From IMG/VR virus record IMGVR_UViG_3300025162_000081, positions 1 through 43,605 of that record: a stretch of DNA of 43,605 bases; one strand, 5' to 3'. Positions 1 to 27,754 of the stretch are shown one piece after another (position 1 is the stretch's first letter; every line of letters starts with the position of its first letter). The position numbers and the translations under genes are program-made. Source of the stretch: a virus. Under the pieces are notes generated by a model that saw nothing but the letters and a program-made list of their open reading frames with translations, searched no databases and was not told where the DNA came from.

Positions 1-597
1 TGATAAATAATTATTTTTATTTAATTCTATTTTTTTATTTTCGTTTTCTTCATAAACTATATACATTATGAAATATTTTCCATTATATTTTGGCTGAAAT
101 AATATTTGCTTTATTTTACCATTAATTTTATACGTGAAATCTATTTCTAAATTTATACCATTGTTTAATGCTTTATATTCTTTACCTCTATGAAAAGTTA
201 ATTTGCCTTCTTTTATTTTACTATTTTGATTCGTAAATATTACATTAAAGCAGTCACCTTTCTTTTTATATTTTGGGATCTGTATTTTATCATCATATTG
301 TCCATTATTTTTCTTTTTTAATAAAGCAAAAAATGATCTATAATTTTGATCAACCAATTTAACTATTTGTTGTGATGATTGAACTGGTAGTAAATTATAA
401 TTTTCGTTTGATTTAACTTCTTTTTCTAAAACGCCATAACCAATATATTTTCCAGTTTGTTTAAAATAATTATTAGCAATATATAATGAATAATTATAAA
501 GATTATTTGAATAGTGAGAATAATCCTTCAAAATTTTATATTGAGTTTTATTAAGTCTGATATGTTGTTTTAGTGTTCTAATAATAAATATAATTTT
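1..597 (-). CDS. TnpB-like protein, N-terminal ~190 aa only. ORF is open to the window edge and has no in-frame ATG, so it is a possible pseudogene or non-ATG start.
   Basis: Reverse-strand translation of 1..597 is stop-free: ..IIRTLKQHIRLNKTQYKILKDYSHYSNNLYNYSLYIANNYFKQTGKYIGYGVLEKEVKSNENYNLLPVQSSQQIVKLVDQNYRSFFALLKKKNNGQYDDKIQIPKYKKKGDCFNV... This has the TnpB N-terminal pattern (YxSFF..LKKK, PKYKKKG) also seen in the complete TnpB at 17034..18242. Not in the supplied ORF track because it runs off the edge. Confidence 0.4.
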
Positions 598-649
598 TTA
601 TATCTTATATATAAATAAAATAAAGTCAAAAAAGTATATTTTTTAGTAA

Positions 650-1300
650 TTATTCATATTTCTTAATTATTTCTTTACATTTTTTTATAAATTGATAAGC
701 ATATATCTGTTCCTGACTTTTAAGATCATAAAATCTTATTTCAAATTGATGATACAGCCAATCATCATATATAGTTCCATTACCATACCTCTTATCTAAA
801 CATTTCCATTTTTTATTTAATGATGACATTATGTAAAACAATTTAACATTGACGTCATATTGTGGTGCAACCCAACTAAATTCACCACCACAATCATATT
901 CATCTTTCAATCTAAAAGATGGTTTATTCATTTTTTCAAACACTTCTCTTGTTATACCAAAACAGGCTGGTGCTGCATAAACAAAATTTGGACTTCTCGT
1001 TTGATTTACTTGTTCAACACCTATTATAGAGTTGTTGTCTTCTATTTTGGATACTATATGCTCATATAAACCTGGTTTTAATGGTATACAGTCAATGTCA
1101 AAAAAGATTAATATATCAAAGTCTAATGAGTTTATTTTAGAATCTAACCAATAGTCATGAAATGGTAAATTAGTTAGTTCTTGAGTTAACTCCATACCAA
1201 AAGTATCAAAAACTGCTTTCTGATACTGTGGTACTTTATCTGGTATATTCTTCATATAACAAGAAAATGCTTCTACTTTTCTCCCATTTATTAGCTGCAT
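650..1300 (-). CDS. putative nucleotide-sugar glycosyltransferase-like protein (DxD motif 'FFDIDC')
   Basis: 216-aa ORF; DxD-like motif; lies at the 3' end of a co-directional glycosyltransferase block (1300..3754). Confidence 0.3.
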   Translation of the reverse strand: MQLINGRKVEAFSCYMKNIPDKVPQYQKAVFDTFGMELTQELTNLPFHDYWLDSKINSLDFDILIFFDIDCIPLKPGLYEHIVSKIEDNNSIIGVEQVNQTRSPNFVYAAPACFGITREVFEKMNKPSFRLKDEYDCGGEFSWVAPQYDVNVKLFYIMSSLNKKWKCLDKRYGNGTIYDDWLYHQFEIRFYDLKSQEQIYAYQFIKKCKEIIKKYE

Positions 1301-2175
1301 TATCTATTCAATACTACCAAGTAGTCTGTTCCTTTTTTTGTGACATACATTTTTTCACCATCATCTATAATTTCTAAAATATCTGGCACAATATTCCAAT
1401 CTTTCAATTTCTTAACAAAAAATAATTCATTCTTTCTAACATGATCCTGTGACCATTGCCTATTTCCAGACTTATGATCATAATATAAATGATATATTTT
1501 TGCTTGTGGAATAATCAGCAAATCATATCCTTTCCTAAATATTTCATACGTAAAAATAGTTTCTTCTCTAATTGATGATGGTTGCAATTCTAATGGATAA
1601 TCATTTGCTAACTCTCTATTAAAGAAATAGTTAGAATAAATATGTTGAACTTTTTTAATATCATCAGATTGTTCATGAACCATCTGTATATTAAATTCTG
1701 AATAAACATTCTCTATTTTATTATAATAGCCATCTTCTTCAACTGGAATCTTACTTGAATCTTTCTTATAAAATTCTGCTAGATATTTATCTATAATAAC
1801 ACCACTCATTGCGCCAACTGTAGGTTTAATATTATTAACAAATAATTCTAAAACATTACAGGATAGTATATTATCATCATCAGTCTTAAAAACCCAGCCA
1901 TCTTCTATTTCATCTAATCCCATCTGAAGTGCTGGTACAGCGCCTTTGCTCTGACCATAAAAATAATCAAATTGTATTCCTTTTTCTTTGAAAAGAACTA
2001 ATATGTTTTTTAGTGTTGGATAATCGTAAAAGTGTTTTTCCTTACTATCATCAACTAAAACTACCCGATCTGGCGGGTAGCTTTGGTTGAAAATAGACAT
2101 TAGGCAAAGTGGCAAAGTAGTGTCGTATCTATTACAAGTTGCAAGTAATACTGTTATTTTATTTTTCTTCTTCAT
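1300..2175 (-). CDS. family 2 glycosyltransferase (GT-A fold)
   Basis: N-terminus ITVLLATCNR..LPLCLMSIFNQSYPPDRVVLVDDSK matches the GT2 signature (Rossmann start, DD after beta4). Start overlaps the upstream gene end. Confidence 0.7.
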   Translation of the reverse strand: MKKKNKITVLLATCNRYDTTLPLCLMSIFNQSYPPDRVVLVDDSKEKHFYDYPTLKNILVLFKEKGIQFDYFYGQSKGAVPALQMGLDEIEDGWVFKTDDDNILSCNVLELFVNNIKPTVGAMSGVIIDKYLAEFYKKDSSKIPVEEDGYYNKIENVYSEFNIQMVHEQSDDIKKVQHIYSNYFFNRELANDYPLELQPSSIREETIFTYEIFRKGYDLLIIPQAKIYHLYYDHKSGNRQWSQDHVRKNELFFVKKLKDWNIVPDILEIIDDGEKMYVTKKGTDYLVVLNR

Positions 2176-3754
2176 AAATTCGGAAAACTTCTTTTATAAC
2201 CTCTTCTGGATCAGGTAGGTAATCATAAAGTGTTTTTCCTTGTGGAATCATATCAATTGTATCTGTTTTAAATTCTGTGTGTCTTATTTCAAGATCATCA
2301 AGAAGTAATTTTTTATATAATGCTTTTGTTTTATATGATTGTGTACCATTTCTAAAAGGTAAAATGTGATCTTCATGTTTACATGTTGGCATAACAACAA
2401 TCCAATTATCAAATGCGCCTGCAATGTGCAATGGTGATGAATCATTTGTTACCAATACTTTAGATAATGAAATTAATGCCATTAGTTCACCTAATGATGT
2501 AATATCTCTAAAATCATATCCATTTGCTGGACATTTTACTGGTAAATATCCTTGTTTGTCATCAATTGTTTTTCCAACAATTCCAACACATAATTTTTCA
2601 GATAGTCCATCAATAACTTTTTGCCACCAATCAACTGGGAATGTTTTACTTGGCCACCATTTTCCAGGATGAATTAAAACCAATTTCTTATCGTGTGGTT
2701 TATCTTTCAACATATCAATAACTGTAGCAACATCGTCAACATCAAGTTTTAATTTAATAGTTTTGTCTTTATTTGGAATAGTTCTTTTAATCATACTCAT
2801 TGTTGCAAAATCTGTTGGATGAAAAAGTACGTGAGATAATTTGTGCTCAGCTTGTTCATCATCAGGGCAAGTATATAAAGTAAGAACTGCATCTTGCATA
2901 CCTTTCCATTGGTCATAATCAAAAACTGGCATATCTAAATGCTCAAATAATCTAGTGAAGTGAGATACAACAAATATATTTGCATCTGGATATACTTTTT
3001 CTGTATACCTAATTGCTGGCTCAGCACATAATTGATCACCCATACCAGCAGTCACTGAAATAAGAATGTTTCTAGTGTATTTATATTCTGGACCATCATT
3101 TTTCCATTGTTCAATATCTTTTTGTAGTACACCCAATAAAATTTCTTTTGGTGCACCAGCATAATGTACTATATATGAATCAAGTCTGGATATACCAATA
3201 AATTTATCAAGTAAGTCCATTCTATTGTATCTATAATCAAGATCAAACATTGATACATCATCATTAAGAATTCTTAAATTAATATATGGTTGATCTGTTT
3301 CAACAAAATTAATACCTTTTGGCATTTTGAATATTTGTTTATGCATTCTTGAAATAACCATTACTCCTGAATTGTAGAATTTGCCTTTCCATTTTTTCAA
3401 TGGTTCACCATAATAAGACGAAGCCTGTTCAAGATATTCAAAACGTGGAGCATAAGCACCTTCATTAAACATACCTAATTTGTTTTCTGGTACAACTTCA
3501 AAAAGATTTGGTGTATCTTCTCTAACAATAAGATCAATATCTAAATAAATTATTCTTTTATACTTGTTTAAGAGTTCGTGTATATGAAATTTGTTCCATT
3601 TTTGAGTGATGTAATTAGGATCTGTTTCTGTAATATTAATAAAATCTGCGCCTATTCTTTTTGCATATTTTTTAATTGAAGGTAATGTGTACAGGCTTAG
3701 ATTTTCATGAAAATCCCCTATTGAGATAGTTAAAACTAAATTTTCTTTATTCAT
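2159..3754 (-). CDS. two-domain glycosyltransferase: N-terminal DxD GT (GT8-like, 'YLDIDLIV') fused to C-terminal GT9 heptosyltransferase-like domain
   Basis: C-terminal ...KLVLIHPGKWWPSKTFPVDWWQKVIDGL...VLVTNDSSPLHIAGAFDNWIVVM resembles the ADP-heptose:LPS heptosyltransferase C-terminus (GNDSGPMHLAAALG..). 531 aa. Confidence 0.55.
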   Translation of the reverse strand: MNKENLVLTISIGDFHENLSLYTLPSIKKYAKRIGADFINITETDPNYITQKWNKFHIHELLNKYKRIIYLDIDLIVREDTPNLFEVVPENKLGMFNEGAYAPRFEYLEQASSYYGEPLKKWKGKFYNSGVMVISRMHKQIFKMPKGINFVETDQPYINLRILNDDVSMFDLDYRYNRMDLLDKFIGISRLDSYIVHYAGAPKEILLGVLQKDIEQWKNDGPEYKYTRNILISVTAGMGDQLCAEPAIRYTEKVYPDANIFVVSHFTRLFEHLDMPVFDYDQWKGMQDAVLTLYTCPDDEQAEHKLSHVLFHPTDFATMSMIKRTIPNKDKTIKLKLDVDDVATVIDMLKDKPHDKKLVLIHPGKWWPSKTFPVDWWQKVIDGLSEKLCVGIVGKTIDDKQGYLPVKCPANGYDFRDITSLGELMALISLSKVLVTNDSSPLHIAGAFDNWIVVMPTCKHEDHILPFRNGTQSYKTKALYKKLLLDDLEIRHTEFKTDTIDMIPQGKTLYDYLPDPEEVIKEVFRIYEEEK

Positions 3755-3766
3755 ATAAATGCATTT

Positions 3767-4495
3767 TTATTTTTTATAGTTTACTGTGATGTAATTGTTT
3801 ATTTTATCTTCTAAATCTTTATTAATCCATTCAATATAACCGTTTATAATACCTTTTCCAGGATTAAAATTTGGAAATCTTGTGTCATTTACTTTTGGTA
3901 ATTCGTCTCCAATCTTACGACCAATATAATTTTCAATTATTGCTTTTTGATTATTAAAATCTAGTAAAATATCTTCATAGTTTAATACAAGTAAATTATC
4001 TTGATATTTTAACCAACCATCAATATGCATTTTCCATCTATGTATATAATTGTCTGGTTCTATTATAATGTGAGGGTCTGGTGAATATGGTGGCAAAAAT
4101 TGTCGTCCAACATCATCTGGCTTCATAAATATCCAATCTTCAAATTTTGGAAATTTACCTAAATCTTCTGGAAATGGTATAAATTTATAATAACTAACAA
4201 GAACATCTTTTAGATTTCTTTTAAGATAAATAACTTTATATTTATCAAAAACAATATCTAAATATGGTTCCATAAATTCTACTTGATGATGTGATTTACA
4301 TACAATATCTTCTATATAAGAATTAACTACAATATCTTTATAAACTTGATGTTCATAATTAGATAAAGTATAAGGTATAGTATTTATTGGAATAAATCCA
4401 ATGGTACGAAATTGACCAAAATTGTATTGGTTTATAATGTTGATTAGTAGATGTGTACCTGAGCGTTCGTGAGTGATTACTAATATTGGTTTCAT
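3767..4495 (-). CDS. sulfotransferase-family protein
   Basis: 5'-PSB-like P-loop 'THERSGTHLL' near the N-terminus and a 3'-PB-like 'YLKRNLKDVLVSYY' (R-x-x-K-D-x-x-V-S). 242 aa. Confidence 0.5.
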   Translation of the reverse strand: MKPILVITHERSGTHLLINIINQYNFGQFRTIGFIPINTIPYTLSNYEHQVYKDIVVNSYIEDIVCKSHHQVEFMEPYLDIVFDKYKVIYLKRNLKDVLVSYYKFIPFPEDLGKFPKFEDWIFMKPDDVGRQFLPPYSPDPHIIIEPDNYIHRWKMHIDGWLKYQDNLLVLNYEDILLDFNNQKAIIENYIGRKIGDELPKVNDTRFPNFNPGKGIINGYIEWINKDLEDKINNYITVNYKK

Positions 4496-4528
4496 TCTTA
4501 ATATATAAAAATGAAAGATGTTTGTTTA

Positions 4529-5776
4529 TTAAAAATTACAAACTCTAACAGGAGTTAATCTTTGTAATGTAGTATTATCACCCAATTGTCCATAATTATT
4601 AACTCCCCAAGTCCAAACATGTCCATTATAATCTATTGCAGATGCATTATAAACACCTGCTGACAAATAACAAAATGTCTTTTTTGCACCTTGTATTGAC
4701 ACTGGTGTACAAATTGATGATGTAGAATTATTACCCAAATATCCATTAACATTAGAACCCCAGCCCCATATTTGTCCATTATTATCTAAACCAAGAGTAT
4801 AATGAAATTTTCCTGTTGAAATTTGACAAAATGTTTTTTTTGCACCTTTTATTGATACTGGTGTATATCTTGATACCGTTGAGTTGTCTCCCAATTCACC
4901 ATATCCATTAAGACCCCAACACCATATTTGTCCATTTTTATCTATTGCCGATACATTATCATTACCCACTGATATTTGACAAAATGTCTTTTTAGCACCT
5001 TGAATTGATACTGGCGTACATGTACATATTATTGAATTATTACCTAATTGACCATATTTGTTATATCCCCAACCCCAAGCTTGTCCTTTATAATCTATAC
5101 CACTTGAATGATAATGAGTACCAATTGAAATTTGGCAAAATGTTTTTTTGTTACCTTGTATTGATATTGGCGTGCGTTTTGATGTTGTGGAATTATCACC
5201 TAAACAACCAAAATTATTATACCCCCAACCCCATAATATTCCATTTTTATCTATTCCAAATCCCAAATAACTACCTGCTGATATTTGGCAAAATGTTTTT
5301 TTGTTACCTTGTATTGATACAGGTGTACATTTTGATGTTGTGGAATTATTACCTAACATTCCATAATAATTATACCCCCAACCCCATATTTGCCCATTTT
5401 TATCTATTCCAAAAGAATATTGTTCCGAAGAACTTGTGTATACCTTACAAAAAGTTTTTTTAGCACCCTGTATTGATACTGGTATACAAGTTGATACAGT
5501 AGAATTATTACCTAATTGACCTTTTGTATTATACCCCCAAGCCCAAGTTTGTCCACTCTTCAATAATATATTGCCAAATCCAGAACTAATCATCATAGCG
5601 ACCCCCCAAGGTGCTGGTGCTGTATAGACCCAATTACTATAATATCCCATACTTGTGAGCCAAGTTTGAGCAGATAAAGCATTAGGTAAATTGGTATGAA
5701 ATGCTCTATTAACAACAGTTAAAAAAGCAGCATCAGATTTACCAATAGAACGCCAGAAAGAAGGTTGAATTGACAT
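4529..5776 (-). CDS. RCC1 / alpha-tubulin-suppressor-like repeat protein (about 7 repeats)
   Basis: Repeated 'WGWGYN.(Y/K)GQLGNNST.S.CTPVSIQG.KKTFC' units (RCC1 signature G.N..GQLG). The underlying ~150-bp DNA units are near-identical tandem repeats across about 4560..5560. Confidence 0.7.
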   Translation of the reverse strand: MSIQPSFWRSIGKSDAAFLTVVNRAFHTNLPNALSAQTWLTSMGYYSNWVYTAPAPWGVAMMISSGFGNILLKSGQTWAWGYNTKGQLGNNSTVSTCIPVSIQGAKKTFCKVYTSSSEQYSFGIDKNGQIWGWGYNYYGMLGNNSTTSKCTPVSIQGNKKTFCQISAGSYLGFGIDKNGILWGWGYNNFGCLGDNSTTSKRTPISIQGNKKTFCQISIGTHYHSSGIDYKGQAWGWGYNKYGQLGNNSIICTCTPVSIQGAKKTFCQISVGNDNVSAIDKNGQIWCWGLNGYGELGDNSTVSRYTPVSIKGAKKTFCQISTGKFHYTLGLDNNGQIWGWGSNVNGYLGNNSTSSICTPVSIQGAKKTFCYLSAGVYNASAIDYNGHVWTWGVNNYGQLGDNTTLQRLTPVRVCNF

Positions 5777-5845
5777 TTATAAAAATTTTAGTTTTAATAT
5801 ATATAAAAAATAGAGTGCATATTTTTTTATTTCAGATATTGTTCT

Positions 5846-5853
5846 TATATTTG
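5846..5853 (+). promoter_or_regulatory. Bacteroidota-type -7 promoter box TATATTTG immediately upstream of the tRNA
   Basis: TAnnTTTG match ends 5 nt before the tRNA 5' end at 5858. Same extended box recurs upstream of many ORFs in the window. Confidence 0.35.
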
Positions 5854-5857
5854 TTGT

Positions 5858-6052
5858 GCCGATGTAGCTCAGTTGGAATAAGAGCGCCACCTTCGAAGGT
5901 GGAACATTGAAGTAGATGAATATCAGTTGCAAATGATATAAAATTTATGAATATGTAGAGGTTGAGATCGAAAGTTTGTGTAAGATGCATATAAGCAAAC
6001 ATATAGGTTAATACTGAAGGGTCACAGGTTCGAGTCCTGTCATTGGAGCAAT
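5858..6052 (+). tRNA. interrupted tRNA gene: 5' part (acceptor, D-arm, anticodon arm; about 5858..5905) and 3' part (T-arm, acceptor; about 6019..6052) separated by a ~113-nt insertion. Anticodon loop is TTCGAA, so Arg(UCG) or Ser(CGA); identity uncertain.
   Basis: 5' part: GCCGATG-TA-GCTC-AGTTGGAATAA-GAGC-G-CCACC-TTCGAA-GGTGG. 3' part: ACAGG-TTCGAGT-CCTGT (canonical T-arm) then CATTGGA-G, which pairs with the 5' acceptor GCCGATG at 6 of 7 positions (1-72 G.A). The anticodon loop is only 6 nt between two perfect 5-bp stems. The intervening 113 nt has no tRNA-like fold I can see. Confidence 0.5.
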
Positions 6053-6665
6053 TTTAAGTTCTTTGAAAATATTAAAATGTTGTGAATTATAACCAGTAGA
6101 TAAGGGCGCAATCGGACTCTTTAAACATCGTGGGAATGCGTCTCTCCCAATGAGGCTGGAGTAATTCACAGTAAATGGGCTAAACATTGAGCCTTTGTGA
6201 AAAAATTGTGTAGTGAAAACGGAGGGGATGGCAATCCCACAAGATAGGAGTATAAATTTGTCCCTGCTCAGGTCCGCAAGACAATTCTTTGAGTAGAATC
6301 GGCAGAAAACCGAGAACCATGCGCCGTGCCTATCACGCAAAAATTTCACATAAAGATGATAATCCAGTAAATGGATGTTGGATATCAAGACGTCTTGATT
6401 TGAAAAGTAAACGCACCTAACGATTCAGAAATGAACCGAGGACAAAATTCTTAGGTCACCAACGGAGAAATCCTATACGTATCGTTACCATTGAGCAAGG
6501 TAAAACGGAACAGATGCTATGTCTGAAACAAGTACAATAAAAGTACAGTGATTTGATTTATCAAATCTAGGAAAACCGTCCAGACGATACGAATGAGTGC
6601 TCAGCCAAACCCTACTTACTATGTGGGAGTTTTCCGTCAGGGTAATTTCCAATCAGGTTAGAAGA
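6053..6665. ncRNA. unclassified structured-RNA candidate: ~600-nt G+C-enriched ORF-free segment next to the tRNA
   Basis: No ORF of 60 aa or more on the + strand. The only minus-strand ORF (6008..6388) is antisense to the tRNA and has atypical composition. G+C is visibly about 40-45% against about 25% background. Many local hairpins: GGGAT-GGCA-ATCCC at about 6225, GGGCT..AGCCT at about 6176, perfect palindrome ATCAAGACGTCTTGAT at about 6384. Strand and class undetermined. Confidence 0.3.
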
Positions 6666-6691
6666 GGGTGCTAAAATTAAAAATTAAAGAA

Positions 6692-6877
6692 ATGGTAACA
6701 TTATTTTGGATAATTTGGTATATTTTGGGTATATTAGGCGCATTAATTTATAATTCGTTTATGAAATATGAGAACACATTTCTAAAATATATTTGGAATG
6801 CTATTGTAGCATGTAGTGGTGGATTTGGATTTCTTATTTCAATTCTACATTGGATAGGTGTTAAATTTATAAAATAA
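6692..6877 (+). CDS. small membrane protein (2 TM)
   Basis: ORF-track 6668..6877 starts at GTG. First ATG is at 6692 (MVTLFWIIWYILGILGALIYN...). Hydrophobic. Confidence 0.35.
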   Translation: MVTLFWIIWYILGILGALIYNSFMKYENTFLKYIWNAIVACSGGFGFLISILHWIGVKFIK

Positions 6878-7000
6878 ATATTTTTTATTATCAAAAAAAA
6901 TGCACTATTATCAGTCAAATGATATCCTAGATATAATACAAAAGAAACAAAAGAAACAAAAGAAAAAAGAAAATCGACATTTTTAGAAAATGGATTTCCT

Positions 7001-7255
7001 ATGAAAAATAAAAAACATAGTGAAGAAACCAAACATAAGATAAGTGAAAGTAAAATTGGTCGCAAAGTATCAGAAGAAACTAAAAAGAAAATGAGTGATA
7101 CGAAACAGAACGTATCAGAAGAAACTAGAAATAAATTAAGAAAAGCGAAAAAAGGAATATCTATGAGAAAAATAAATTGTCCATATTGTAATAAAATTGG
7201 TGGTATATCACAAATGAGGCAATGGCATTTTGAAAATTGTAAAGATAAAAAATAA
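7001..7255 (+). CDS. free-standing NUMOD3-repeat protein with C-terminal Cys/His zinc finger (homing-endonuclease DNA-binding-domain-like)
   Basis: SEETKHKISESKIG / SEETKKKMSD / SEETRNKLRKAKKG NUMOD3-type repeats, then CPYCNK..HFENC. No catalytic GIY-YIG or HNH part. Confidence 0.5.
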   Translation: MKNKKHSEETKHKISESKIGRKVSEETKKKMSDTKQNVSEETRNKLRKAKKGISMRKINCPYCNKIGGISQMRQWHFENCKDKK

Positions 7256-7928
7256 TATGAATATCACATTTTTGTCGGATACACACAGCAAACATAAACA
7301 ATTGCTCAATCATCTTCCTGGAGGTGATTTAATTGTCCACGCGGGAGACTTAACCTCAGTTGGTTTCAAACATGAAATTGAAGATTTTTGTAAATGGTTT
7401 GAAAAATTAAAATATTCCAATAAAGTATTTATTGCTGGTAATCATGATCACGGATTTGAAAGAGATCATAATAGTGCATATGAAATTGTTAAAAAATATA
7501 AAATAAACTATCTTCAAGATAGTATGATTGAAATTGATGGAATTAATATATGGGGGTCACCTTGGCAACCAGAATTTTGTAATTGGGCATTCAATTTACC
7601 AAGAAACGGTTGGCAACTTGCAGAAAAATGGAACTATATACCAGAAGATACTGACATTTTAATTACTCACGGTCCACCATTTGGATGTTTAGATATTGTA
7701 AATGGTAGAAAAGAAAATATAGGATGTGAGTTATTAACTGAACGTCTTAAAATAGTTAAACCTAAAATTCATGTTTATGGACATATACATTCTGGATATG
7801 GTTATAAGTTCGATGGTAATACACATTATTTTAATGCTTCTGTATTAAATGAAAAATATGAATATACTAATAAGCCATTGACAATTGATTGGAATAAAGA
7901 AACAAATGAAATAACATTTTTAAAATGA
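7230..7928 (+). CDS. calcineurin-like metallophosphoesterase
   Basis: Motifs LSDTH, HAGDL (GD), FIAGNHD (GNHD), ITHGPP, YGHIH. Alternative ATG at 7257 avoids the overlap with 7001..7255. Confidence 0.75.
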   Translation: MKIVKIKNNMNITFLSDTHSKHKQLLNHLPGGDLIVHAGDLTSVGFKHEIEDFCKWFEKLKYSNKVFIAGNHDHGFERDHNSAYEIVKKYKINYLQDSMIEIDGINIWGSPWQPEFCNWAFNLPRNGWQLAEKWNYIPEDTDILITHGPPFGCLDIVNGRKENIGCELLTERLKIVKPKIHVYGHIHSGYGYKFDGNTHYFNASVLNEKYEYTNKPLTIDWNKETNEITFLK

Positions 7929-8197
7929 ATGAAGAATATAAAAAAGTTTGGAAAGAATATTTGACTGAATATTTAAAAGACTACACAGTAAAAGATAATA
8001 AAAGTATTTATAGTCATTATAATGGTTATAATGATGATTACAAATTAAAGATTGTGGATTACACTCAAATGTTGAAAGAGAAAAAAGAAGATCCTAAAGT
8101 AGCAAATGAAAAAATTTTAGAAAAAATACCTATTGCTGAAATTGAAAAATTCTTACGTAAAAAGAAATTAGAAAATTTAAAAAATAAAGAAGAATGA
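7925..8197 (+). CDS. small hypothetical protein ending in the shared C-terminal tail ..KFLRKKKLENLKNKEE
   Basis: ATGA start/stop coupling with neighbours. Tail is shared with at least 9 other small ORFs (see findings). Confidence 0.5.
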   Translation: MNEEYKKVWKEYLTEYLKDYTVKDNKSIYSHYNGYNDDYKLKIVDYTQMLKEKKEDPKVANEKILEKIPIAEIEKFLRKKKLENLKNKEE

Positions 8198-8412
8198 ATT
8201 ATTCATTAGAAGATATTATGAAAGATATCTCAATTATAAAATATAGAAATCAATTTGAATGTGACTTTAATGACCATGAATATGAATATCAAAGGGAGTA
8301 TCGTAGAATGGAAGTTGAATGGAAAGAAAAATTGGATAATATTGATATTAAGTACATTGAAAAGTATTTGAGAAAAAAGAAATTAGAAAAATTAGAAAAA
8401 ATAAATCAATAA
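8194..8412 (+). CDS. small hypothetical protein ending ..KYLRKKKLEKLEKINQ (shared tail)
   Basis: 72-aa ORF, overlapping start/stop with neighbours. Confidence 0.5.
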   Translation: MNYSLEDIMKDISIIKYRNQFECDFNDHEYEYQREYRRMEVEWKEKLDNIDIKYIEKYLRKKKLEKLEKINQ

Positions 8413-10006: not shown

Positions 10007-10455
10007 TGGAAAAGGAAATTAAAAGGCTTGAGGAACAGATTGCTAAATGTGATGTTAAATTATCAAATAGTTCTTTTGTTGATAAAGCACCAAAAGATAT
10101 TATTTTAAAAGAACAACAAAAAAAGAAAGACTTTACAGCACAATTAGAAATTATAAGAAAACAATTAGAAAATTCTAAATCAGTTAGTAAAGATTACTAT
10201 GACGATGAAATTTGTCAATTCACAGTTGGCACAACTGTTTCCTATTTTAAGATACCAAGAACAGAAAGAAAAAAAGAATTTCTAATTTCTAAATTAGATA
10301 GTGTAGAAAAAATAAATTGGCATATTCAATATTTACGTGAACAAAAGACTAATATTGAAATATACAGTGAAGAATGGTATAACTTTATTTATAATGAGGA
10401 AATCACATCTAATGAAATAAATGAATTATTTGAAATTTTTAGGAAATTTGTATGA
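10006..10455 (+). CDS. hypothetical coiled-coil protein
   Basis: 149 aa. ATGG/TAATG-type coupling to neighbours. Confidence 0.45.
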   Translation: MEKEIKRLEEQIAKCDVKLSNSSFVDKAPKDIILKEQQKKKDFTAQLEIIRKQLENSKSVSKDYYDDEICQFTVGTTVSYFKIPRTERKKEFLISKLDSVEKINWHIQYLREQKTNIEIYSEEWYNFIYNEEITSNEINELFEIFRKFV

Positions 10456-10853
10456 AAGATATTCTGAGAAAAATAATATATGGTGCAGAAATAACAATTG
10501 TAAATGACACTGATGCATATTTGAATAAATATAGAAATGCTTCTCAAAAAATTGATATTTCTTATGCTAATATTCTACTATTCTTAAAAATAATAGGCTT
10601 TGATAGTGGAAATTTTGAAACTGGTGAAAGACATTATAGATTAGAAGAACCATTTTATTCTGTTAAAGATAAAATTAAAACTATTCATCTTGGAAAAATT
10701 GGAGAATGTATTGAAAGTCATAAACCAGCATACTATGTTACATATCCAGTATTTAAAGAATTAGAAAAAGCATATAATGATTTGAGAAATCAATTATTAC
10801 GAAAAGAAAAATTAAAAAAAATAGAAAATTATGGGAGTAATGAGTTGCTATAG
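10452..10853 (+). CDS. hypothetical protein ending ..LLRKEKLKKIENYGSNELL (variant of the shared tail)
   Basis: 133 aa. Confidence 0.45.
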   Translation: MKDILRKIIYGAEITIVNDTDAYLNKYRNASQKIDISYANILLFLKIIGFDSGNFETGERHYRLEEPFYSVKDKIKTIHLGKIGECIESHKPAYYVTYPVFKELEKAYNDLRNQLLRKEKLKKIENYGSNELL

Positions 10854-11088
10854 AAATAATTGTGAAAATATAATGTGTGATATATATGTTAATGGTATTG
10901 GTTATGTTTGTTACGAATGTCAGAGTGAGTTTAAAGAATATTTAGCATCAAACGGAATTGTAGTAGAAACAGAAGGAGAAATAAAAAGAGAGTTACAAAA
11001 ATTTATGGAGTCTGAAAAAGATGCATACACAAAAGGAAAAAATATGAGTGTTGACGAATTTTTTAATGAATATAGAAAAGATTATTGA
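10831..11088 (+). CDS. small Cys-rich (probable zinc-binding) protein
   Basis: CYRNNCENIMC .. CYECQ pattern in the first 40 aa. Confidence 0.4.
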   Translation: MGVMSCYRNNCENIMCDIYVNGIGYVCYECQSEFKEYLASNGIVVETEGEIKRELQKFMESEKDAYTKGKNMSVDEFFNEYRKDY

Positions 11089-11240
11089 TATGATATTAGT
11101 AATTTTAATTATAATAGTATTTATTGATATGAATATCATTAATATGATAAGATTTTTTGTTTCAAAAAAATACTTTGATACATTTTTTATCACTCAAAAA
11201 CAATTAAGAAAACTTAAATTAATTAAAATACAAAAAAATA

Positions 11241-11474
11241 GTGAAAACTTGTAAAAAGATTTCAACTGGAGAGATATTTGAATATGAACAATGTGTTTCT
11301 TATCCTGTATTTGATAGAACTCGAAATAACGGCACAATATATTTTGAATTAATTTCAAAAGGTAAGTTTGTTCTGGGTAAGTATATTGGTGAGGACGAAT
11401 TTTATGATGAATATATTGATATTAAAAAAGAAAGAAGACTTAAATTAGAAAAATTAAATCAAATTCTCCAATAA
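11241..11474 (+). CDS. hypothetical protein (GTG start) ending ..KKERRLKLEKLNQILQ (tail variant)
   Basis: No ATG start; weak. Confidence 0.25.
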   Translation: MKTCKKISTGEIFEYEQCVSYPVFDRTRNNGTIYFELISKGKFVLGKYIGEDEFYDEYIDIKKERRLKLEKLNQILQ

Positions 11475-12397
11475 AACCCTTTATATTTAGTATTTTTTGC
11501 TATCGCCTTTCTTAAGTTTTGAATACATATTTCATTATAATTTTTTATTTCCTTAATATTATTCCAAATCCTAACTATACTTCCTTTTTCGTCTATTTGT
11601 TTAATGTTAGTATATTCTCTCGTATTTAAATTTAATTTTTTAATATTATTCTCAATTTCGGCTTTTTCTAAAAAGTTTAATGAATAATAATAATTTTTAG
11701 CATGCCTACATCTATCTTGTAAAACGAAACTTATAGAACGTGGATTAACATTCATTTCTCTTGAGCATTCTTTTATACTGTTAAATTTTTTTATATAATT
11801 TCCAAACATATCATATTGATATATCTCTATGTTTGTACATTTATTTTTATTATCTCTTATTGGTATATTATTTTCTTTTAATATTTTAGTAATAGTTTCT
11901 CTATCAATTTTTAATTCTATTGATATTTTTTTAATTGATAATTTATTAAAATATAATTCTTTAACTACATCAAGATATTTGCTCCTTTTTAATTTGTATG
12001 CTTTTGATACATTATTTCTATGTTCGTTTGTCCATTTCAATTCTAAATTTGTTGCCGCAAATGCTCTAGAATTATATCCATTTTTATAAGAGTTATATTC
12101 ATCAATATAATACTGTTCTCTTTTTATGCAACTATCACGATCACACTCTTCAATTATTTCAAATATTATATTATCAATTCCATACTTATTGACCGCATTT
12201 TGTAAAGAAGGTGAGTTAGATATATTTTTTGATAGTTTTAAAATATGACTGAGCCATCTTTTATGAAACCCATTTTTATTAGAAGTACTACCAATATAAA
12301 CTTTACCATTATTGTTAATAAAACTTATCTTATATACACCAATACTTTTAGGGAATATTTTTTTATCATTTATCGTATATTTCATTTTATATTTCAT
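11459..12397 (-). CDS. GIY-YIG homing endonuclease with NUMOD1-type C-terminal DNA-binding modules
   Basis: N-terminus IGVYKISFINNNGKVYIGSTSN....R...H is the GIY-YIG motif. C-terminal ..KGFYWRI helix module. Confidence 0.8.
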   Translation of the reverse strand: MKYKMKYTINDKKIFPKSIGVYKISFINNNGKVYIGSTSNKNGFHKRWLSHILKLSKNISNSPSLQNAVNKYGIDNIIFEIIEECDRDSCIKREQYYIDEYNSYKNGYNSRAFAATNLELKWTNEHRNNVSKAYKLKRSKYLDVVKELYFNKLSIKKISIELKIDRETITKILKENNIPIRDNKNKCTNIEIYQYDMFGNYIKKFNSIKECSREMNVNPRSISFVLQDRCRHAKNYYYSLNFLEKAEIENNIKKLNLNTREYTNIKQIDEKGSIVRIWNNIKEIKNYNEICIQNLRKAIAKNTKYKGFYWRI

Positions 12398-14549: not shown

Positions 14550-14584
14550 AAAAAAGCCTCAAATTTTGAGGCTTTTTTTATTTG
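14550..14584. terminator. bidirectional intrinsic terminator AAAAAAGCCTCAAA-TT-TTGAGGCTTTTTTTA between convergent genes
   Basis: Perfect stem with A-tract and T-tract. The 26-bp unit AGTTGAAGAATAAAAAAAGCCTCAAA is duplicated directly upstream (about 14497..14522). Confidence 0.65.
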
Positions 14585-15003
14585 TTATCTCTATTTTTAC
14601 CTAGATGATATCCATCACAGTAAATACATTTATACACTGAAAAATGTTTATCCATTTTTTTCGCCATACTATCTGCAGCTTTCTTTGCTGTTTCCTTAGT
14701 ATTATACATCACCTTTAGTTTACCATCCTCTCTCTGGTGACTTCTAATACTAAATAGACCCATTGCGTTGCCTGTAATAAAAAAGTTCTTAAAGGCTCTC
14801 TTTAATGGTAATTGTTCTTTAAGTCCAAGAAACAAATTTTCAACTTTAATTTTCTTATATTTTAATAATAAGTCAATTGCAATCCACAAAATTGCTAATA
14901 TACTACAAATAGCGCCAAACCACAAATAAAATTGGTGTATATGGTAAATAACTAACCATACACTAAGTAACAATATAAATAACGGATATTTTAATGTTTT
15001 CAT
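14578..15003 (-). CDS. membrane protein with C-terminal Cys motif (..YKCIYCDGYH)
   Basis: Two N-terminal TM segments. Confidence 0.45.
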   Translation of the reverse strand: MKTLKYPLFILLLSVWLVIYHIHQFYLWFGAICSILAILWIAIDLLLKYKKIKVENLFLGLKEQLPLKRAFKNFFITGNAMGLFSIRSHQREDGKLKVMYNTKETAKKAADSMAKKMDKHFSVYKCIYCDGYHLGKNRDNK

Positions 15004-15287
15004 TTTAATAATCTTAATTTTTCTAGTTTTTGTTTTCTGATATTTTGAATTTTTTTCATTTCAAATAATTTGATATCATATTCTGTAAATATGTCTTTAA
15101 TTGATTGTGTTGAGTCTATGTAAGTATATAATAATTTATTTTTTAAAAATATTTGTTTTTTATTTGTGCCTAATTTTTTTAAAATATTTTTAAAGAAATT
15201 GAACCCAAGTAAAAGGTAAAAAATCATAAATATAGAACATATAAATGATATAAAAAATAGTATTATTAATATTAAAACATCTAGCAT
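15000..15287 (-). CDS. small membrane protein ending ..IRKQKLEKLRLLK (tail variant)
   Basis: N-terminal TM. 95 aa. Confidence 0.4.
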   Translation of the reverse strand: MLDVLILIILFFISFICSIFMIFYLLLGFNFFKNILKKLGTNKKQIFLKNKLLYTYIDSTQSIKDIFTEYDIKLFEMKKIQNIRKQKLEKLRLLK

Positions 15288-17029: not shown

Positions 17030-18242
17030 ACTACTAAGTAGTTTCCTTACAAAGATTATACTTTATAAGAACTTTAGATAAATCTAAAGGCTCGTTCATA
17101 GAAGCAAAGTGATTTCCGAACCACCTATTCAATATATTTATGGCTGAATTTAAATCACGGTCTATAATTATGGTGTCTGATAACTGAACTTCCCTATTAC
17201 CAAGACTTATTTTATCTTTAAATAGTTTTCCAGTTAGACAGTTAATTTGTGTTGTCCATTTTTCATCAATTTTCACCAAGTTGGTATTTTTTGCTTGACA
17301 CTTATATGTAAGGAATTGTAGAAACATATTGATATTAGATTGACTAAATGACTTTCTAATACCTTTTTTATTCTCATTCACTCCTTCTGTTGACATTAGC
17401 CTCTTAACTGTTAGATCACCAACTACAATTGTATTGTAGTTCATATTCGATAACTTTTTACTCTGAATATGAAGAGTTTGTTTTATTTGTTCGTTCTTTT
17501 TATGATAACATTTATTTAATGTTTTTTTCAATAATAAGTTTCTATTTGATCCTTTTGTTGTTTTACTCCTTTTGTTTTGTATTTTTGCTATTTGTTTCTG
17601 ATAATAATCATTAATTTTTTTAGATTTATTTTTTAATACAATCATACCACCTTTATTATCTATTCCTGTTCCTAATTTACTTAACCCCAAATCAATAGCA
17701 AGAACTTTAGTTTTAACATTAACATCATTAAAATATTCTATTTTATCGTCAATCACCAAATCACACAACCATTTATGTCTAATAAATTTAATTCTTATTT
17801 CTTTTATTTTTAAATCTTTAATATTTAAATTTGATTTATATTCAAATGGAATTTGATTTAGAAAGAACAATCCTTTTTTTATCATCCATCCTGATTGATT
17901 AAAAGAAATAGTATGAAAATAATTATTTTCTATTTTTCTTGGTGGTTTAGCATTTTTATCTTTTTTTATCAAATTAAAAAATGACCTATAAGATCCATAT
18001 AATTCTGTTGCTATTGTTTGAATTGCCTTTGAATTTAATTTCTTCCAATCTGGATATTCTTCTTTTAATAATGGTAATAAATTATTTAACTTGAATTTAT
18101 CTAAAATTATTTTATCTGTTTCATATTTATCTTGTTGTATATCAAGCAATTTATTCCATATATCTTTACGAATATCAGATAATTCTTGTAATTCAAGAAT
18201 TTGTTCTTTTGATGGAAATAATCTTATTTGATACGTCTTCAT
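17030..18242 (-). mobile_element. IS200/IS605-family tnpB-only (IS1341-like) element; ends not determined
   Basis: TnpB ORF with no adjacent tnpA. Its stop is only 5 nt from the convergent RNA-ligase stop, so any right-end/omega-RNA scaffold must overlap 3' sequence there. Confidence 0.3.
17034..18242 (-). CDS. tnpB: TnpB (IS605 OrfB) RuvC-like RNA-guided-nuclease family protein
   Basis: N-terminus MKTYQIRLFPSKEQ. RuvC-I VLAIDLGLSKLGTG. C-terminal CLTGK...IIDRDLNSAINIL (RuvC-III DRDxNAAxNI). 402 aa. Confidence 0.8.
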   Translation of the reverse strand: MKTYQIRLFPSKEQILELQELSDIRKDIWNKLLDIQQDKYETDKIILDKFKLNNLLPLLKEEYPDWKKLNSKAIQTIATELYGSYRSFFNLIKKDKNAKPPRKIENNYFHTISFNQSGWMIKKGLFFLNQIPFEYKSNLNIKDLKIKEIRIKFIRHKWLCDLVIDDKIEYFNDVNVKTKVLAIDLGLSKLGTGIDNKGGMIVLKNKSKKINDYYQKQIAKIQNKRSKTTKGSNRNLLLKKTLNKCYHKKNEQIKQTLHIQSKKLSNMNYNTIVVGDLTVKRLMSTEGVNENKKGIRKSFSQSNINMFLQFLTYKCQAKNTNLVKIDEKWTTQINCLTGKLFKDKISLGNREVQLSDTIIIDRDLNSAINILNRWFGNHFASMNEPLDLSKVLIKYNLCKETT

Positions 18243-18403: not shown

Positions 18404-18862
18404 ATGGAAAAGAAATATACATTTTTTTGGAATGGAGTTTTTAGTAACTGGCATAGAGCGATATTCAAAGTGGATGGTGTTACATTTAGTTCTGGGGAAC
18501 AGTACTTCATGTACAAAAAGGCTATTGTGTTTCACGATTTTGACTCTGCAGAAAAGATTATGAATGAAGAACATCCAAGAAGGCAAAAGGCTTTAGGAAA
18601 ATTAGTAAAGAATTTTAACAAAAAAACTTGGGATGATCTTTGTTATGATATAGTTAAGGATGGATTACGTGAAAAGTTTAAGCAAAATCCTGATATGAAA
18701 GAATATCTAATTAGTTGTAAAGACACTATTATTGTTGAAGCATCACCAGAGGATAGAATTTGGGGAATTGGATACGGAGAATGGGAAGCACTTGAAAATA
18801 TTGATGATTGGGGTCAAAATCTGTTAGGTAAAATATGTACTGAATTGGCTAATGAACTATGA
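18404..18862 (+). CDS. NADAR (YbiA/DUF1768) family protein
   Basis: FFWNGVFSNWHRAIFKVDGVTFSSGEQYFMYKKA...HPRRQKALGK...KFKQNPD...IVEASPEDRIWGIGYG is the family signature end to end. Confidence 0.7.
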   Translation: MEKKYTFFWNGVFSNWHRAIFKVDGVTFSSGEQYFMYKKAIVFHDFDSAEKIMNEEHPRRQKALGKLVKNFNKKTWDDLCYDIVKDGLREKFKQNPDMKEYLISCKDTIIVEASPEDRIWGIGYGEWEALENIDDWGQNLLGKICTELANEL

Positions 18863-19077
18863 AAAAATATTTTGTAATTAAAAACCGTGGTTGGGGTGCA
18901 TTAAAAGAAGGAGACGTGGTTGGTATAACCACTAATGAAGAATATGCAAAATCAAGAGTGGAATGGGCAACTTATTACGAAGAAGTTAAAATGCTTGATT
19001 TTCCAGATTCAATTAAAAAGATTAGAAAAAAGAAATTAAAAAAAATAAATAAAAATGGAAAAGAAATTACCAATTGA
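18859..19077 (+). CDS. small hypothetical protein ending ..IKKIRKKKLKKINKNGKEITN (tail variant)
   Basis: 72 aa. Confidence 0.4.
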   Translation: MKKYFVIKNRGWGALKEGDVVGITTNEEYAKSRVEWATYYEEVKMLDFPDSIKKIRKKKLKKINKNGKEITN

Positions 19078-19823: not shown

Positions 19824-20279
19824 TTAAAATTTAGAGAGCAATTTTTGTTCTCTAAATTTTTTCATAGAATTTGAGATTTTATTTTTTTGTTCCTCACTAA
19901 GTTTAGTATAAACTCTTCCATTTCTTGCAGATTGTATATGTTCAACTGACTTCTTTTTACCCTTTGATGCCTTAGACATTTTTTCTCTTGTCTCTACTGA
20001 AAATATCCTACCAGTGCAACCTTTTCTTATTTTTTCTTTTCTATCATTTGATAACTTGGTACCTGTTAATGTTTTTGATATTTTTTCTTTAGTTTCATCA
20101 CTTAATGGTCCTTTTAGTACACCCTTTAATCTTTTTGACATTTTTTCTTTTGATTCTTCACTCATTTTTTGACCCTTATGTGACTCTGAATTTTTTAATG
20201 TGTGTTCAATTGATTTTTTCTTACCCTTTAATGCAGCAGACATCTTCAATTTTGTTTCTTCAGTATGATGATATCCCAT
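19824..20279 (-). CDS. free-standing NUMOD3-repeat protein (about 5 repeats)
   Basis: EETKLKMSAALKGKKKS / SEESKEKMSKRLKG / SDETKEKISKTLTG / SVETREKMSKASKGKKKS / SEEQKNKISNSMKK. Confidence 0.5.
   Translation of the reverse strand: MGYHHTEETKLKMSAALKGKKKSIEHTLKNSESHKGQKMSEESKEKMSKRLKGVLKGPLSDETKEKISKTLTGTKLSNDRKEKIRKGCTGRIFSVETREKMSKASKGKKKSVEHIQSARNGRVYTKLSEEQKNKISNSMKKFREQKLLSKF
19829..19866 (+). terminator. candidate intrinsic terminator TTAGAGA-gcaatttttgt-TCTCTAA + T-tract
   Basis: Follows stop 19818. Overlaps the last codons of the convergent minus gene. Confidence 0.3.
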
Positions 20280-25133: not shown

Positions 25134-25534
25134 TAAGAGAATTTAAGGAATGGAAGTATCTTGCTTATCACGACTCATTAACTGGGTTATTAAACAGGAA
25201 CTGGCTTAATGCTTATAAAATGAGCATTAAGAATCCTTACGTTTATTTTATTGATATAAATAACTTGACTAAAATTAACAAAATGGGTCATACTGTTGGT
25301 GATATGCACATTATAAATGTTGTTAAGCACATTCCACAAGTTGATGGAGACTATTTAGTTCGTTATGCTGGAGATGAATTTATTTTATTCTCTAATTCTG
25401 AAAATTTAATTAGTACCAACAAATTATATTCTGTTGGTATGTCAATAAATATAGGTGATTTATCAAACTCTATTATGGAAGCTGACATTAAAATGATAGA
25501 ATCTAAAAAAAGATTTAAGAATGAGAACATTTAA
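25109..25534 (+). CDS. stand-alone minimal GGDEF-domain protein (signature AGDEF)
   Basis: YHDSLTGLLNR (DxLTGLxNR). YFIDINNLTKINKMGHTVGD (substrate and metal site). RYAGDEF in place of RYGGEEF. C-terminal EADIKMIESKKRFKN. No sensor or I-site region. 141 aa. Confidence 0.6.
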   Translation: MFSRVTKIIREFKEWKYLAYHDSLTGLLNRNWLNAYKMSIKNPYVYFIDINNLTKINKMGHTVGDMHIINVVKHIPQVDGDYLVRYAGDEFILFSNSENLISTNKLYSVGMSINIGDLSNSIMEADIKMIESKKRFKNENI

Positions 25535-25766
25535 AGAAGGTGACAAATTGCTATGTTGTAAAAAATTTGATCATTTAAAAATTGGAAAATATTATGAAAT
25601 TATTTTATGCGGTTCATACCGACCATCTAATTGTTTTAATATAAGCGGATTTTGGTTTTCATTAAATAAAACATCATCAGTATACCCATATGTTTATGAA
25701 TATTTCTTTACTGAAAAAGAAGAAAGAAAATTAAAATTACAAATACTTAAATTAAAATCTATATGA
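25521..25766 (+). CDS. hypothetical protein ending ..EKEERKLKLQILKLKSI (tail variant)
   Basis: 81 aa. Confidence 0.4.
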   Translation: MRTFKEGDKLLCCKKFDHLKIGKYYEIILCGSYRPSNCFNISGFWFSLNKTSSVYPYVYEYFFTEKEERKLKLQILKLKSI

Positions 25767-26053
25767 AAAATAAATGGCTCTGGTCAATGGTCATAGTAAA
25801 TATGTCAATTGTTATAGGTAGTGTTATACTAAATATTTTCACTAAAAATTATGTTGCTCTAACAGCTTGGGTCAACACTGGATTGTGGATATTTATTACA
25901 TTTATGACTCAAAAAAAAATGTACAAACAACAGGAAGAAATAGGTGATATGTGGACTGAAAATATTGAGTTTATTTTAGGTAGATTTAAAATCGATGAAA
26001 TTCAAAAATGGTTACGTAAAAAGAAATTAGAAAATTTAAAAAACAAAGAATAA
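25763..26053 (+). CDS. small membrane protein ending ..EIQKWLRKKKLENLKNKE (shared tail)
   Basis: Two TM segments. The tail DNA is near-identical to 8150..8194. Confidence 0.45.
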   Translation: MKNKWLWSMVIVNMSIVIGSVILNIFTKNYVALTAWVNTGLWIFITFMTQKKMYKQQEEIGDMWTENIEFILGRFKIDEIQKWLRKKKLENLKNKE

Positions 26054-27621: not shown

Positions 27622-27754
27622 TTTCTTTTTCCTCTTTTTCTTCCTCTTTCGTTATTTTAATTCCTTTACCACCACAATCATTACATCTAGCTTTAGTTTC
27701 ACGAATATAACCACTGGCATCACACGTGAGACAAATTTTATAGGTATATCCCAT
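27590..27754 (-). CDS. small zinc-ribbon protein (CxxC..CxxCGGKG), 54 aa
   Basis: Own translation: MGYTYKICLTCDASGYIRETKARCNDCGGKGIKITKEEEKEEKEINTSETKESQ. ATG overlaps upstream stop (TAATG). 3' end overlaps the convergent cobalamin-ATR gene by about 30 nt. Confidence 0.3.
   Translation of the reverse strand: MGYTYKICLTCDASGYIRETKARCNDCGGKGIKITKEEEKEEKEINTSETKESQ

Follow-up and report, generated by a model that had tools for sequence, protein, structure and literature searches.

Why should ten small proteins encoded in one fragment of a phage genome, most of them otherwise unalike, finish in the same short basic peptide? The question is raised by the IMG/VR virus record IMGVR_UViG_3300025162_000081, of which positions 1 to 43,605 were analysed (the window, meaning this whole 43.6-kb stretch), and in which a reading of the DNA letters (the original prediction) had noticed variants of one C-terminal motif, here called the tail, on a series of small open reading frames (ORFs). 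The tail is the end of a longer module of ~30 residues that is widely distributed in phages of low GC content, is attached to many different protein bodies and is kept by selection on the peptide. For its function we favour, at about even odds, a portable interaction domain by which various small accessory proteins would dock onto a single shared partner.

Results and discussion

Occurrence of the tail in the window

All ten ORFs singled out by the original prediction finish in variants of phi-R-K-x-K-L-x-x-(L/I), summarised as R-[KE]-x-[KR]-L-x-x-[LI], and its central claim, a C-terminal peptide common to at least ten small proteins, is thus borne out (Table 1). Nine of the ten coordinates stand as they were given; the minus-strand carrier is the ORF 15000..15287, with its C-terminus at 15000, and the tail is absent from the neighbouring ORF 14578..15003. 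The span 7925-8412, to which the feature had been assigned, takes in only two of the ten genes.

The regular expression R[KRE][KEQRL][KR]L[KEQ][KNQIL][LI], which was fitted after the hits were known, gave exactly 10 matches over all six frames of the window. Each was in frame with a small ORF and lay 3-9 residues from its stop, and no internal or out-of-frame match was found in 13,024 residues of predicted protein and the other frames. Shuffling within proteins gave a mean of 0.005 matches against the 10 observed. The tail is present on 10 of ~88 genes, more than a tenth of the total.

As the expression was post hoc and the genome is rich in Lys, Ile, Leu and Glu, independent controls were sought. 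A hidden Markov model (HMM) of the tail scored the ten ORFs at 13.3-34.3 bits and every other ORF of at least 30 aa in the window at 6.4 bits or less. In the whole 462-kb genome LR756500, that of a related phage with a still lower GC (24.3%, ~4800 ORFs of at least 30 aa), the expression had no match and the best tail-HMM score was 7.7 bits. The same 23-nt DNA pattern occurs at 120 sites in cellular genomes, where it is mostly out of frame; 8 of the 120 sites are near the C-terminus of an ORF of at least 30 aa and none has the extended module. Taken together, these controls mean that low-GC codon composition is not the source of the motif. The original prediction had proposed to discard the motif if composition accounted for its frequency or if related genomes lacked it; the shuffles, the HMM and the LR756500 control speak against the first, and the tail is kept in both related and unrelated phage contigs.

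Three sub-classes could be distinguished among the ten tails (genes are named here by their first coordinate). Class 1 (IEKYLRKKKLE) comprises 7925, 8194 and 25763, with 18859 close to it; class 2 (YF-x-x-x-E-x-RK-L/K-KL, behind an SH3-like barrel) comprises 25521 and 11241; and class 3 (EIEWLESEDxIKxIRKxKLxxI), in effect class 1 shortened by six residues, is represented by 34480. The genes 15000, 10452 and 40800 are weak members at 13-15 bits, and the tail of 15000 (..KKIQNIRKQKLEKL) has only its I-R-K-x-K-L end in common with the class-3 pattern.

Table 1 Tail genes, identified by the regular expression and the tail HMM, and other features of the window (each tail is shown up to the stop codon)
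Position	Strand	Feature	Tail or sequence	Core	Tail HMM (bits)
7925..8197	+	90 aa, class 1; identical protein recovered as P0153	..IPIAEIEKFLRKKKLENLKNKEE	8156-8179 (RKKKLENL)	32.0
8194..8412	+	72 aa, class 1; P0013, present on 28 contigs	..LDNIDIKYIEKYLRKKKLEKLEKINQ	8371-8394	34.3
10452..10853	+	133 aa, divergent tail	..LRNQLLRKEKLKKIENYGSNELL	10800-10823	14.3
11241..11474	+	77 aa, class 2	..EFYDEYIDIKKERRLKLEKLNQILQ	11433-11456	21.8
15000..15287	-	95 aa, N-terminal hydrophobic (membrane-like) segment; P0007 is a shorter call of this protein	..KKIQNIRKQKLEKLRLLK	15015-15038	13.3
18859..19077	+	72 aa	..DSIKKIRKKKLKKINKNGKEITN	19024-19047	27.4
25521..25766	+	81 aa, class 2; SH3-like beta-barrel body, then C-terminal helix	..YEYFFTEKEERKLKLQILKLKSI	25725-25748	
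25763..26053	+	96 aa, two N-terminal hydrophobic segments, class 1	..IDEIQKWLRKKKLENLKNKE	26015-26038	28.0
34480..34863	+	127 aa, N-terminal hydrophobic segment, class 3	..EIEWLESEDNIKRIRKEKLEQIAKL	34828-34851	22.5
40800..41303	+	167 aa, hydrophobic N-terminal segments, divergent tail	..FDLDDIREERLKKLKRLNKIWKN	41250-41273	14.8
34852-34920	+	Terminator-like hairpin, then U-run, between tail gene 34480-34863 and the MVP gene	GCCACUAUCUAGUGGC		
34998-37409	+	803-aa MVP homologue			
27754-27768, 28218-28232, 28968-28982, 29700-29714, 33367-33381, 39324-39338	-	Gene ends K-(Y/F)-N-(I/L)-stop	AAA TWY AAY WTM TRA		
650-5776	-	Glycan-modification-type cluster: two glycosyltransferases, sulfotransferase, RCC1-repeat protein			
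5777-7065		GC somewhat higher (~31%); only short, odd-looking minus-strand ORFs			
17034-18242	-	TnpB/IS605 OrfB-type gene (OrfB_IS605, Cas12f1-like_TNB domains)			
11459-12397, 30736-31386, 37972-38742, 19824-20279	-, +, +, -	Three paralogous GIY-YIG/NUMOD homing-endonuclease genes and one related gene			
25109-25534, 28968-29699, 31408-31647, 38727-39095		Signalling-type or eukaryote-like domains (GGDEF, ankyrin repeats, cold-shock, cREC_REC receiver-like)			

The N-terminal bodies of the carriers had been described as unrelated. This is correct only in part. The adjacent genes 7925-8197 and 8194-8412 arose as tandem paralogues (identity 33% across 75 aa, E 5e-6), the last 28 aa of 25763-26053 are common to it and 7925-8197, and 25521-25766 and 11241-11474 align jointly with a set of small proteins, the class-2 set. 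The remaining carriers have the tail alone in common. An eleventh tail gene, a paralogue of 34480..34863, lies just past the right end of the window (10716-11216 of locus L034).

The module and its family

The eight-residue core is the end of a module of ~30 residues, ..TDEEILDxIDIxxIEKYLRKKKLENInKK followed by the stop (for example TDEEILDRIDIKVIEKYLRKKKLENINKK). Scanning IMG/VR with a degenerate DNA pattern returned phage contigs of low GC (20-24%) and 19-235 kb, each with 2-3 adjacent small ORFs ending in ..(L/I)RK(K/Q/L/E)KLEK(L/I) plus 2-7 residues. A profile of the last 48 residues then recovered 77 proteins of 31-84 aa when 8,000 word-sharing candidates from a 5.8-billion-protein database were scored. 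An exhaustive search of 1.84 billion cluster representatives with a profile of the dominant subfamily gave 519 clusters at E <= 1e-3 and 24 at E <= 1e-10; the best 150 of the 519 are all 33-123 aa long and match the profile C-terminally. The consensus is (K/E)(K)T(D/N)EEIL(D/E)x(I/M)(D/P)Ixx-IE(K/R)(Y/F)-LRKKKLE(N/K)(I/L)(N/K)K, followed by 0-10 more residues.

Among the newly found sequences, 114 carry the strict core, and in 112 of these it ends 4-14 residues from the C-terminus. Throughout these 114 sequences L-13, R0 and K+3 are invariant, position +1 is always K or R and position -2 always Tyr or Phe, although the invariance of R0 and K+3 and the choice of K/R at +1 and L/I/M at +4 are partly imposed by the regular expression used for selection. 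I-8, I-5, E-4, K+2 and L+4 are conserved in at least 92%. Ten further matches that vary at +1 (e.g. LREKKL, LRNKKL) were excluded from the count. The N-terminal parts of the family have a median length of 34 aa and are unalignable, mildly acidic and rich in Tyr, Asp and Asn.

'Module-only' mini-proteins such as P0040 (33 aa) were considered and rejected, as a run of N in the scaffold cuts the gene call short and the ORF extends upstream. On the ENA scaffold GROS21-1..scaffold_3667 (1-8410, locus L180) a tail gene homologous to 8194-8412 lies in a stretch of 21% GC; farther along, GC is 34-37% and the genes are bacterial-looking (hemerythrin/ScdA, a Crp-family regulator, cytochrome c, a NosZ-like propeller). 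A run of N, separate from this change in GC, is found immediately upstream of the tail gene and truncates its call. The mixed composition could be due to mis-scaffolding or could be a hint to the host.

Scans of the ten window proteins and 42 family members against Pfam and PHROGs (v4) found nothing significant, and a profile search of the sequences in the PDB gave no match at E <= 10. A tblastn search with a typical member, P0063, had no match at E <= 1 in 50,697 deposited phage records, a search whose sensitivity is limited by the low-complexity filter. The strict class-1 DNA pattern was absent from 185,579 species-representative cellular genomes, in which a looser pattern gave mainly out-of-frame chance matches. 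Cluster names were uninformative, and the literature gave no match to motif strings such as LRKKKLE and nothing of relevance by keyword. Terminal peptides common to polymorphic viral proteins are known as a general kind; the module itself, its size, its distribution and its carriers are not known to have been described.

Selection acts on the peptide

The original prediction had noted two near-identical DNA copies, 8150-8194 and 26005-26050, and had argued for selection on the peptide from the likeness of all others at the protein level only. Both observations are correct: the two copies even have the rare CGT Arg codon in common, and the others differ at synonymous sites. In 18 distinct DNA versions of the class-1 tail the invariant Arg is encoded by AGA (15), CGT (2) or AGG (1), the background frequencies being 68, 16 and 10%, and in the conserved Leu columns TTA, CTT, TTG and CTA all occur, about as often as the background would predict. 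A contig of 31% GC spells the core AGG AAG AAG AAA CTT GAA AAA TTG. Since silent sites drift while the residues are fixed, it is the peptide that is selected, and it is kept by strong purifying selection. In orthologue pairs between the window and locus L156, where 34480..34863 also has its orthologue, conservation along the protein is highest in the tail; the body of 40800-41303 is ~30% identical to that of its L156 orthologue and the last ~28 aa are nearly identical.

These results bear directly on the idea that the tail is not selected as a peptide, and is instead a by-product of AT-rich codons or a translated DNA element such as a recombination linker, promoter or translation enhancer. The tail is indeed encoded by very A-rich DNA immediately before the next start codon, a position at which A-rich leaders are favoured in translation initiation of the Bacteroidota type, and two copies are nearly the same in DNA. 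However, an element of this kind would not be expected to be missing from a 462-kb genome of 24% GC, to be in frame and at an ORF end at every match in the window yet mostly out of frame in cellular genomes, or to vary in its synonymous codons at background frequency around invariant residues. No Rfam family was matched, and promoter-like sites are in modest excess over the window (58 against 44 +/- 6 in shuffles) without being systematically placed at tails. This explanation is largely refuted and is given a minimal probability.

One codon bias was observed, the middle Lys being AAG in 13 of the 18 versions against a background of 16%, and this is most simply explained as the breaking of a run of 11 A. 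Programmed -1 frameshifting at the heptamer A_AAA_AAG was also considered and dropped; the heptamer is found in some copies only, and in 7925-8197 the -1 frame is closed by a stop codon at 8185-8187, ahead of the next gene.

The same bias could be cited for a ribosome-arrest or leader peptide of the SecM, MifM or VemP type, of which the conserved ~30 C-terminal residues would act within the exit tunnel of the ribosome and tune translation of a coupled downstream gene, with membrane segments giving the release force. Such peptides are small ORFs with a variable N-terminus, sometimes a membrane segment (MifM has one at its N-terminus) and a conserved C-terminus of ~20-30 residues upstream of a gene, and in the tail genes the conserved segment has roughly the length of the exit tunnel, ends a few codons from the stop, follows a variable and in some carriers membrane-like N-terminal part, and in 8 of the 10 carriers the gene overlaps or abuts a downstream ORF on the same strand. 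Tight spacing is, however, the norm throughout this genome. The gene junctions have no common RNA structure or downstream RNA switch: nine of ten fold no better than shuffles (z -0.9 to +2.1), and the tenth is the terminator-like hairpin of Table 1 (z -2.6). In addition, motif and stop are anything from 3 to 14 residues apart, N-terminal and duplicated copies of the module exist (see below), the AAG bias has the simpler explanation given above, and ten such regulators in 43 kb would be implausible. We consider an arrest peptide very improbable.

Predicted structure and the bodies that carry the module

AlphaFold predicts the module to be helical, as a helix-break-helix with pLDDT >90. For 8194..8412 the helices are modelled at residues 5-48 and 52-71, with pLDDT >90 across residues 31-70. 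In class 2 the tail is modelled as a separate C-terminal helix behind an SH3-like barrel, the latter being formed by the N-terminal part of 25521-25766.

The bodies are of several types. Some are acidic, Tyr-rich, unalignable segments that are probably disordered; others have Zn-ribbon-like cysteine motifs (P0058, P0076, P0190). Four of the ten window carriers (25763, 34480, 15000 on the minus strand and 40800) have one or two hydrophobic, membrane-like segments and look like membrane proteins. In P0029 the module is N-terminal and is followed by a UVR domain (PF02151), and the 74-aa protein P0006 contains two copies. With such varied bodies, and with N-terminal and duplicated placements, the module behaves as a portable domain.

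A membrane-binding amphipathic helix, which had been put forward as a fallback to a targeting peptide, fits poorly. On a helical wheel drawn by hand the hydrophobic residues are scattered round the helix rather than gathered on one face, which disfavours this mode of binding.

A proposed domain for docking onto a common partner

The reading that we favour, at about even confidence, is that the tail is an autonomous domain of ~30 residues, consisting of a short acidic helix, a break at D/P-I and a longer helix that carries I-E-(K/R)-(Y/F)-L-R-K-K-K-L-E-x-(I/L) and ends in a few Lys or Asn. Large low-GC phages have it as the C-terminal part of many small, rapidly evolving accessory proteins. The family seems to expand through tandem duplication and through recombination that joins the tail to new bodies; the N-terminal parts diverge freely while the tail is held by purifying selection. 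A single conserved partner, probably nucleic acid or an acidic surface on a protein, would be bound by the invariant RKKK patch and the flanking Leu and Ile residues. Docking would then bring the varied bodies, whether acidic, Tyr-rich and probably disordered segments, membrane anchors, Zn-ribbon-like or SH3-like, to the same place. Other candidate partners might be the interior of the procapsid, or the module itself, if its acidic and basic halves pair antiparallel.

Several points weigh against this reading. The ten tails of the window are heterogeneous, with three sub-classes and the weak members, and a function common to all of them is assumed; the single common partner and its identity are only what we infer; and four consecutive invariant basic residues would fit plain nucleic-acid binding equally well.

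The last point leads to an alternative in which the tail would be no more than a basic helix, with RKKK and the further lysines binding DNA or RNA non-specifically, or the acidic and basic halves pairing antiparallel in self-association, by which all tail proteins would assemble together. The segregation of charge is consistent with this, the conserved E-16, E-15, D-12, D-9 and E-4 preceding R0, K1, K2, K3 and the lysines, and Zn-ribbon-like and SH3/KOW/Tudor-like bodies are typical of nucleic-acid binders. Plain electrostatics would not, however, need the near-invariant L-13, I-8, I-5, Y/F-2, L-1, L+4 and I+7, and the heptad register is irregular in our own reading. The SAP/HeH motif offers a comparison: the hydrophobic register L1, I4, I6, I9, L13, L18 of the tail and the basic stretch behind it agree with the opening half of LxxLxVxxLRxxLxxRGL, the SAP consensus, but the tail proteins end where the second SAP helix would start. 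Among the 42 members scanned, neither SAP nor any other nucleic-acid-binding family of Pfam was matched at E <= 10. On balance this alternative seems rather unlikely. Three further likenesses carry no weight here: to the FtsZ C-terminal peptide (I-P-A-F-L-R-K beside I-E-K-Y-L-R-K), whose conserved Pro the tail lacks; of class-2 tails to the C-terminus of bS21, for which Pfam gave no hit; and to the basic helices of proteins that partner ParA or MinD.

For docking onto one partner, a parallel in organisation is provided by the poxvirus ankyrin/PRANC (F-box-like) families, in which many paralogues in each viral genome combine a variable N-terminus with a conserved short C-terminal helical domain. 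All of them are directed by this domain to one and the same host machine; poxviruses and their hosts are wholly different from the phages discussed here, and there is no sequence relationship to the tail.

A possible tag for a phage-built compartment

In a different reading the tail would be an address tag with which a clade of large low-GC phages delivers rapidly diversifying mini-proteins into a compartment or particle built by the phage, either the interior of the procapsid, for co-injection, or a vault-like shell of the protein MVP. We regard this as improbable as a whole, and the two compartments can be considered separately.

In the capsid version, which is likewise improbable, the tail would bind the procapsid or scaffold, and polymorphic small proteins would be packaged and injected with the DNA. 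Hypervariable small proteins with one terminal peptide have a parallel in the internal-protein locus of T4, where small, polymorphic, unrelated proteins share a short terminal peptide, the CTS, and are encoded in hyperplastic regions of a large phage; some T4-type genes (T4_Y16D, RNA ligase) are present in the window. The CTS, however, is N-terminal, ~10 residues long and removed by the prohead protease, whereas the module is C-terminal (in all ten window genes and the top 150 members), ~30 residues long, helical by prediction and found also on membrane proteins.

The scaffold protein gp8 of phage P22 ends in ..GDVETYRKLKAKLKGIR, in a basic C-terminal helix-turn-helix that resembles class-2 tails such as ..EERKLKLQIL, and the predicted helix-break-helix would fit this architecture. 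The basic residues of this extreme C-terminal segment (..YRKLKAKLKGIR) mediate binding, and in the 80alpha scaffold and SaPI1 CpmB different proteins likewise have the same C-terminal binding peptide. Homology of the module to the gp8 C-terminus was nevertheless ruled out, hhalign giving a probability of 0.08%, and the Leu register differs. Furthermore, the tail carriers are tiny and numerous rather than scaffold-like (the largest seen are ~170 aa, the listed top profile hits at most 123 aa, and no scaffold-sized tail protein was seen), the four carriers with N-terminal membrane-like segments would be unlikely capsid cargo, and the window has no structural genes with which to compare.

The shell version was prompted by the 803-aa MVP homologue, which matches PF11978 (MVP_shoulder) and, weakly, Vault_3. 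At 14 IMG/VR loci, the contigs of which reach 501 kb, relatives with 42-91% identity were found, and LR756500-03, the 462-kb and 735-kb genomes, also encode relatives (49-53%). Such homologues occur in phages of 24-60% GC, including those at 59-60%. The original prediction had suggested that the tail loads cargo into, or targets proteins to, this shell. In favour of a cargo tag, tail gene 34480-34863 is directly upstream of the MVP gene, relatives with a 72%-identical MVP have 3-4 tail genes within 6 kb upstream of it (and 6-8 per 15-22 kb, often in tandem arrays), and the 222-kb MVP contig L162 also encodes a tail protein, P0075.

These associations are offset by the loci that have an MVP gene and no tail. 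The complete genome of LR756500 (MVP 53% identical) has none at all, and no tail was found within 10 kb of the MVP gene in L157/L158, in which the protein is 80% identical, nor in L163, L164, L166, L168 and L169. Tails are beside the MVP gene only in L156 (91% MVP identity) and the 72%-identity relatives, a pattern that is what shared ancestry alone would give. With about one gene in nine carrying a tail, the position of 34480-34863 is unsurprising; by our own estimate the chance of a tail gene adjoining any given gene is ~20%, and the terminator-like hairpin separates this one from the MVP gene. The four carriers with predicted N-terminal membrane helices would be unlikely cargo. The known vault cargo signal is the INT domain of ~160 aa and not a short peptide. 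Phage MVPs have been described in one preprint, which does not report cargo. The link to MVP is thus not supported, and a cargo tag for a vault-like shell is very unlikely.

The accompanying analogy with encapsulin cargo-loading peptides fares no better. Both are short C-terminal tags on unrelated proteins, but the encapsulin peptides are ~10 residues, extended, rich in Gly, Ser and Leu and encoded beside the encapsulin gene, whereas the module is ~30 aa, helical by prediction and rich in Lys, Glu, Ile and Leu. No encapsulin family appears in the precomputed Pfam lists, which cover most genes of the window and its flanks.

Genomic context and other features

The window has ~26% GC and small ORFs densely packed on both strands, a greedy non-overlapping set of 88 genes taking up 89% of the sequence. 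The genome of which it forms part is that of a large, uncultured phage: the MVP homologue has 53% and 49% identity to proteins of the 'uncultured phage' genomes LR756500 (462 kb) and LR756501/3 (735 kb), and the phosphoesterase gene has DNA-level matches in Flavobacterium phages. Precomputed Pfam matches, from identical contigs, include glycosyltransferases, the sulfotransferase, the RCC1-repeat protein, GIY-YIG endonucleases, T4_Y16D, RNA ligase and the TnpB-like gene. The tRNA scan of the window found none, no family of Rfam 15 was matched, and both scans were also negative for the GC-richer region at 5777-7065. The GIY-YIG/NUMOD paralogues match one another at E 1e-22 to 1e-31, and the additional gene has repeated matches to the part of 30736-31386 that is NUMOD-like.

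Another gene end also recurs: six minus-strand genes were observed to finish in K-(Y/F)-N-(I/L) (Table 1). Six cases compare with 0.18 expected from shuffled C-termini, and for the DNA pattern, which was fitted post hoc, with 0.35. Four of the six end in ..TATGA, which would be an ATGA start/stop overlap if the downstream gene starts there. This end may be a nucleotide-level signal of these transcription units rather than a peptide.

Conclusions

The module is sharply conserved and is present in no fewer than 519 protein clusters from public metagenomes, and no description of it was found in the databases and literature searched. At the least this is a new domain family with which large-phage genomes can be annotated. 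The presence of one short peptide on so many otherwise unrelated small phage proteins implies one common binding partner, and such a partner would provide a single experimental handle on dozens of 'hypothetical' genes. Should it be a host hub, the module would mark a new strategy of host takeover; should it be the capsid or the MVP shell, the module would be a natural cargo tag with engineering value. If the address-tag reading were true, the tail would represent the first description of a C-terminal cargo-tag system for tailed phages, and could serve as a ready handle for the loading of foreign proteins.

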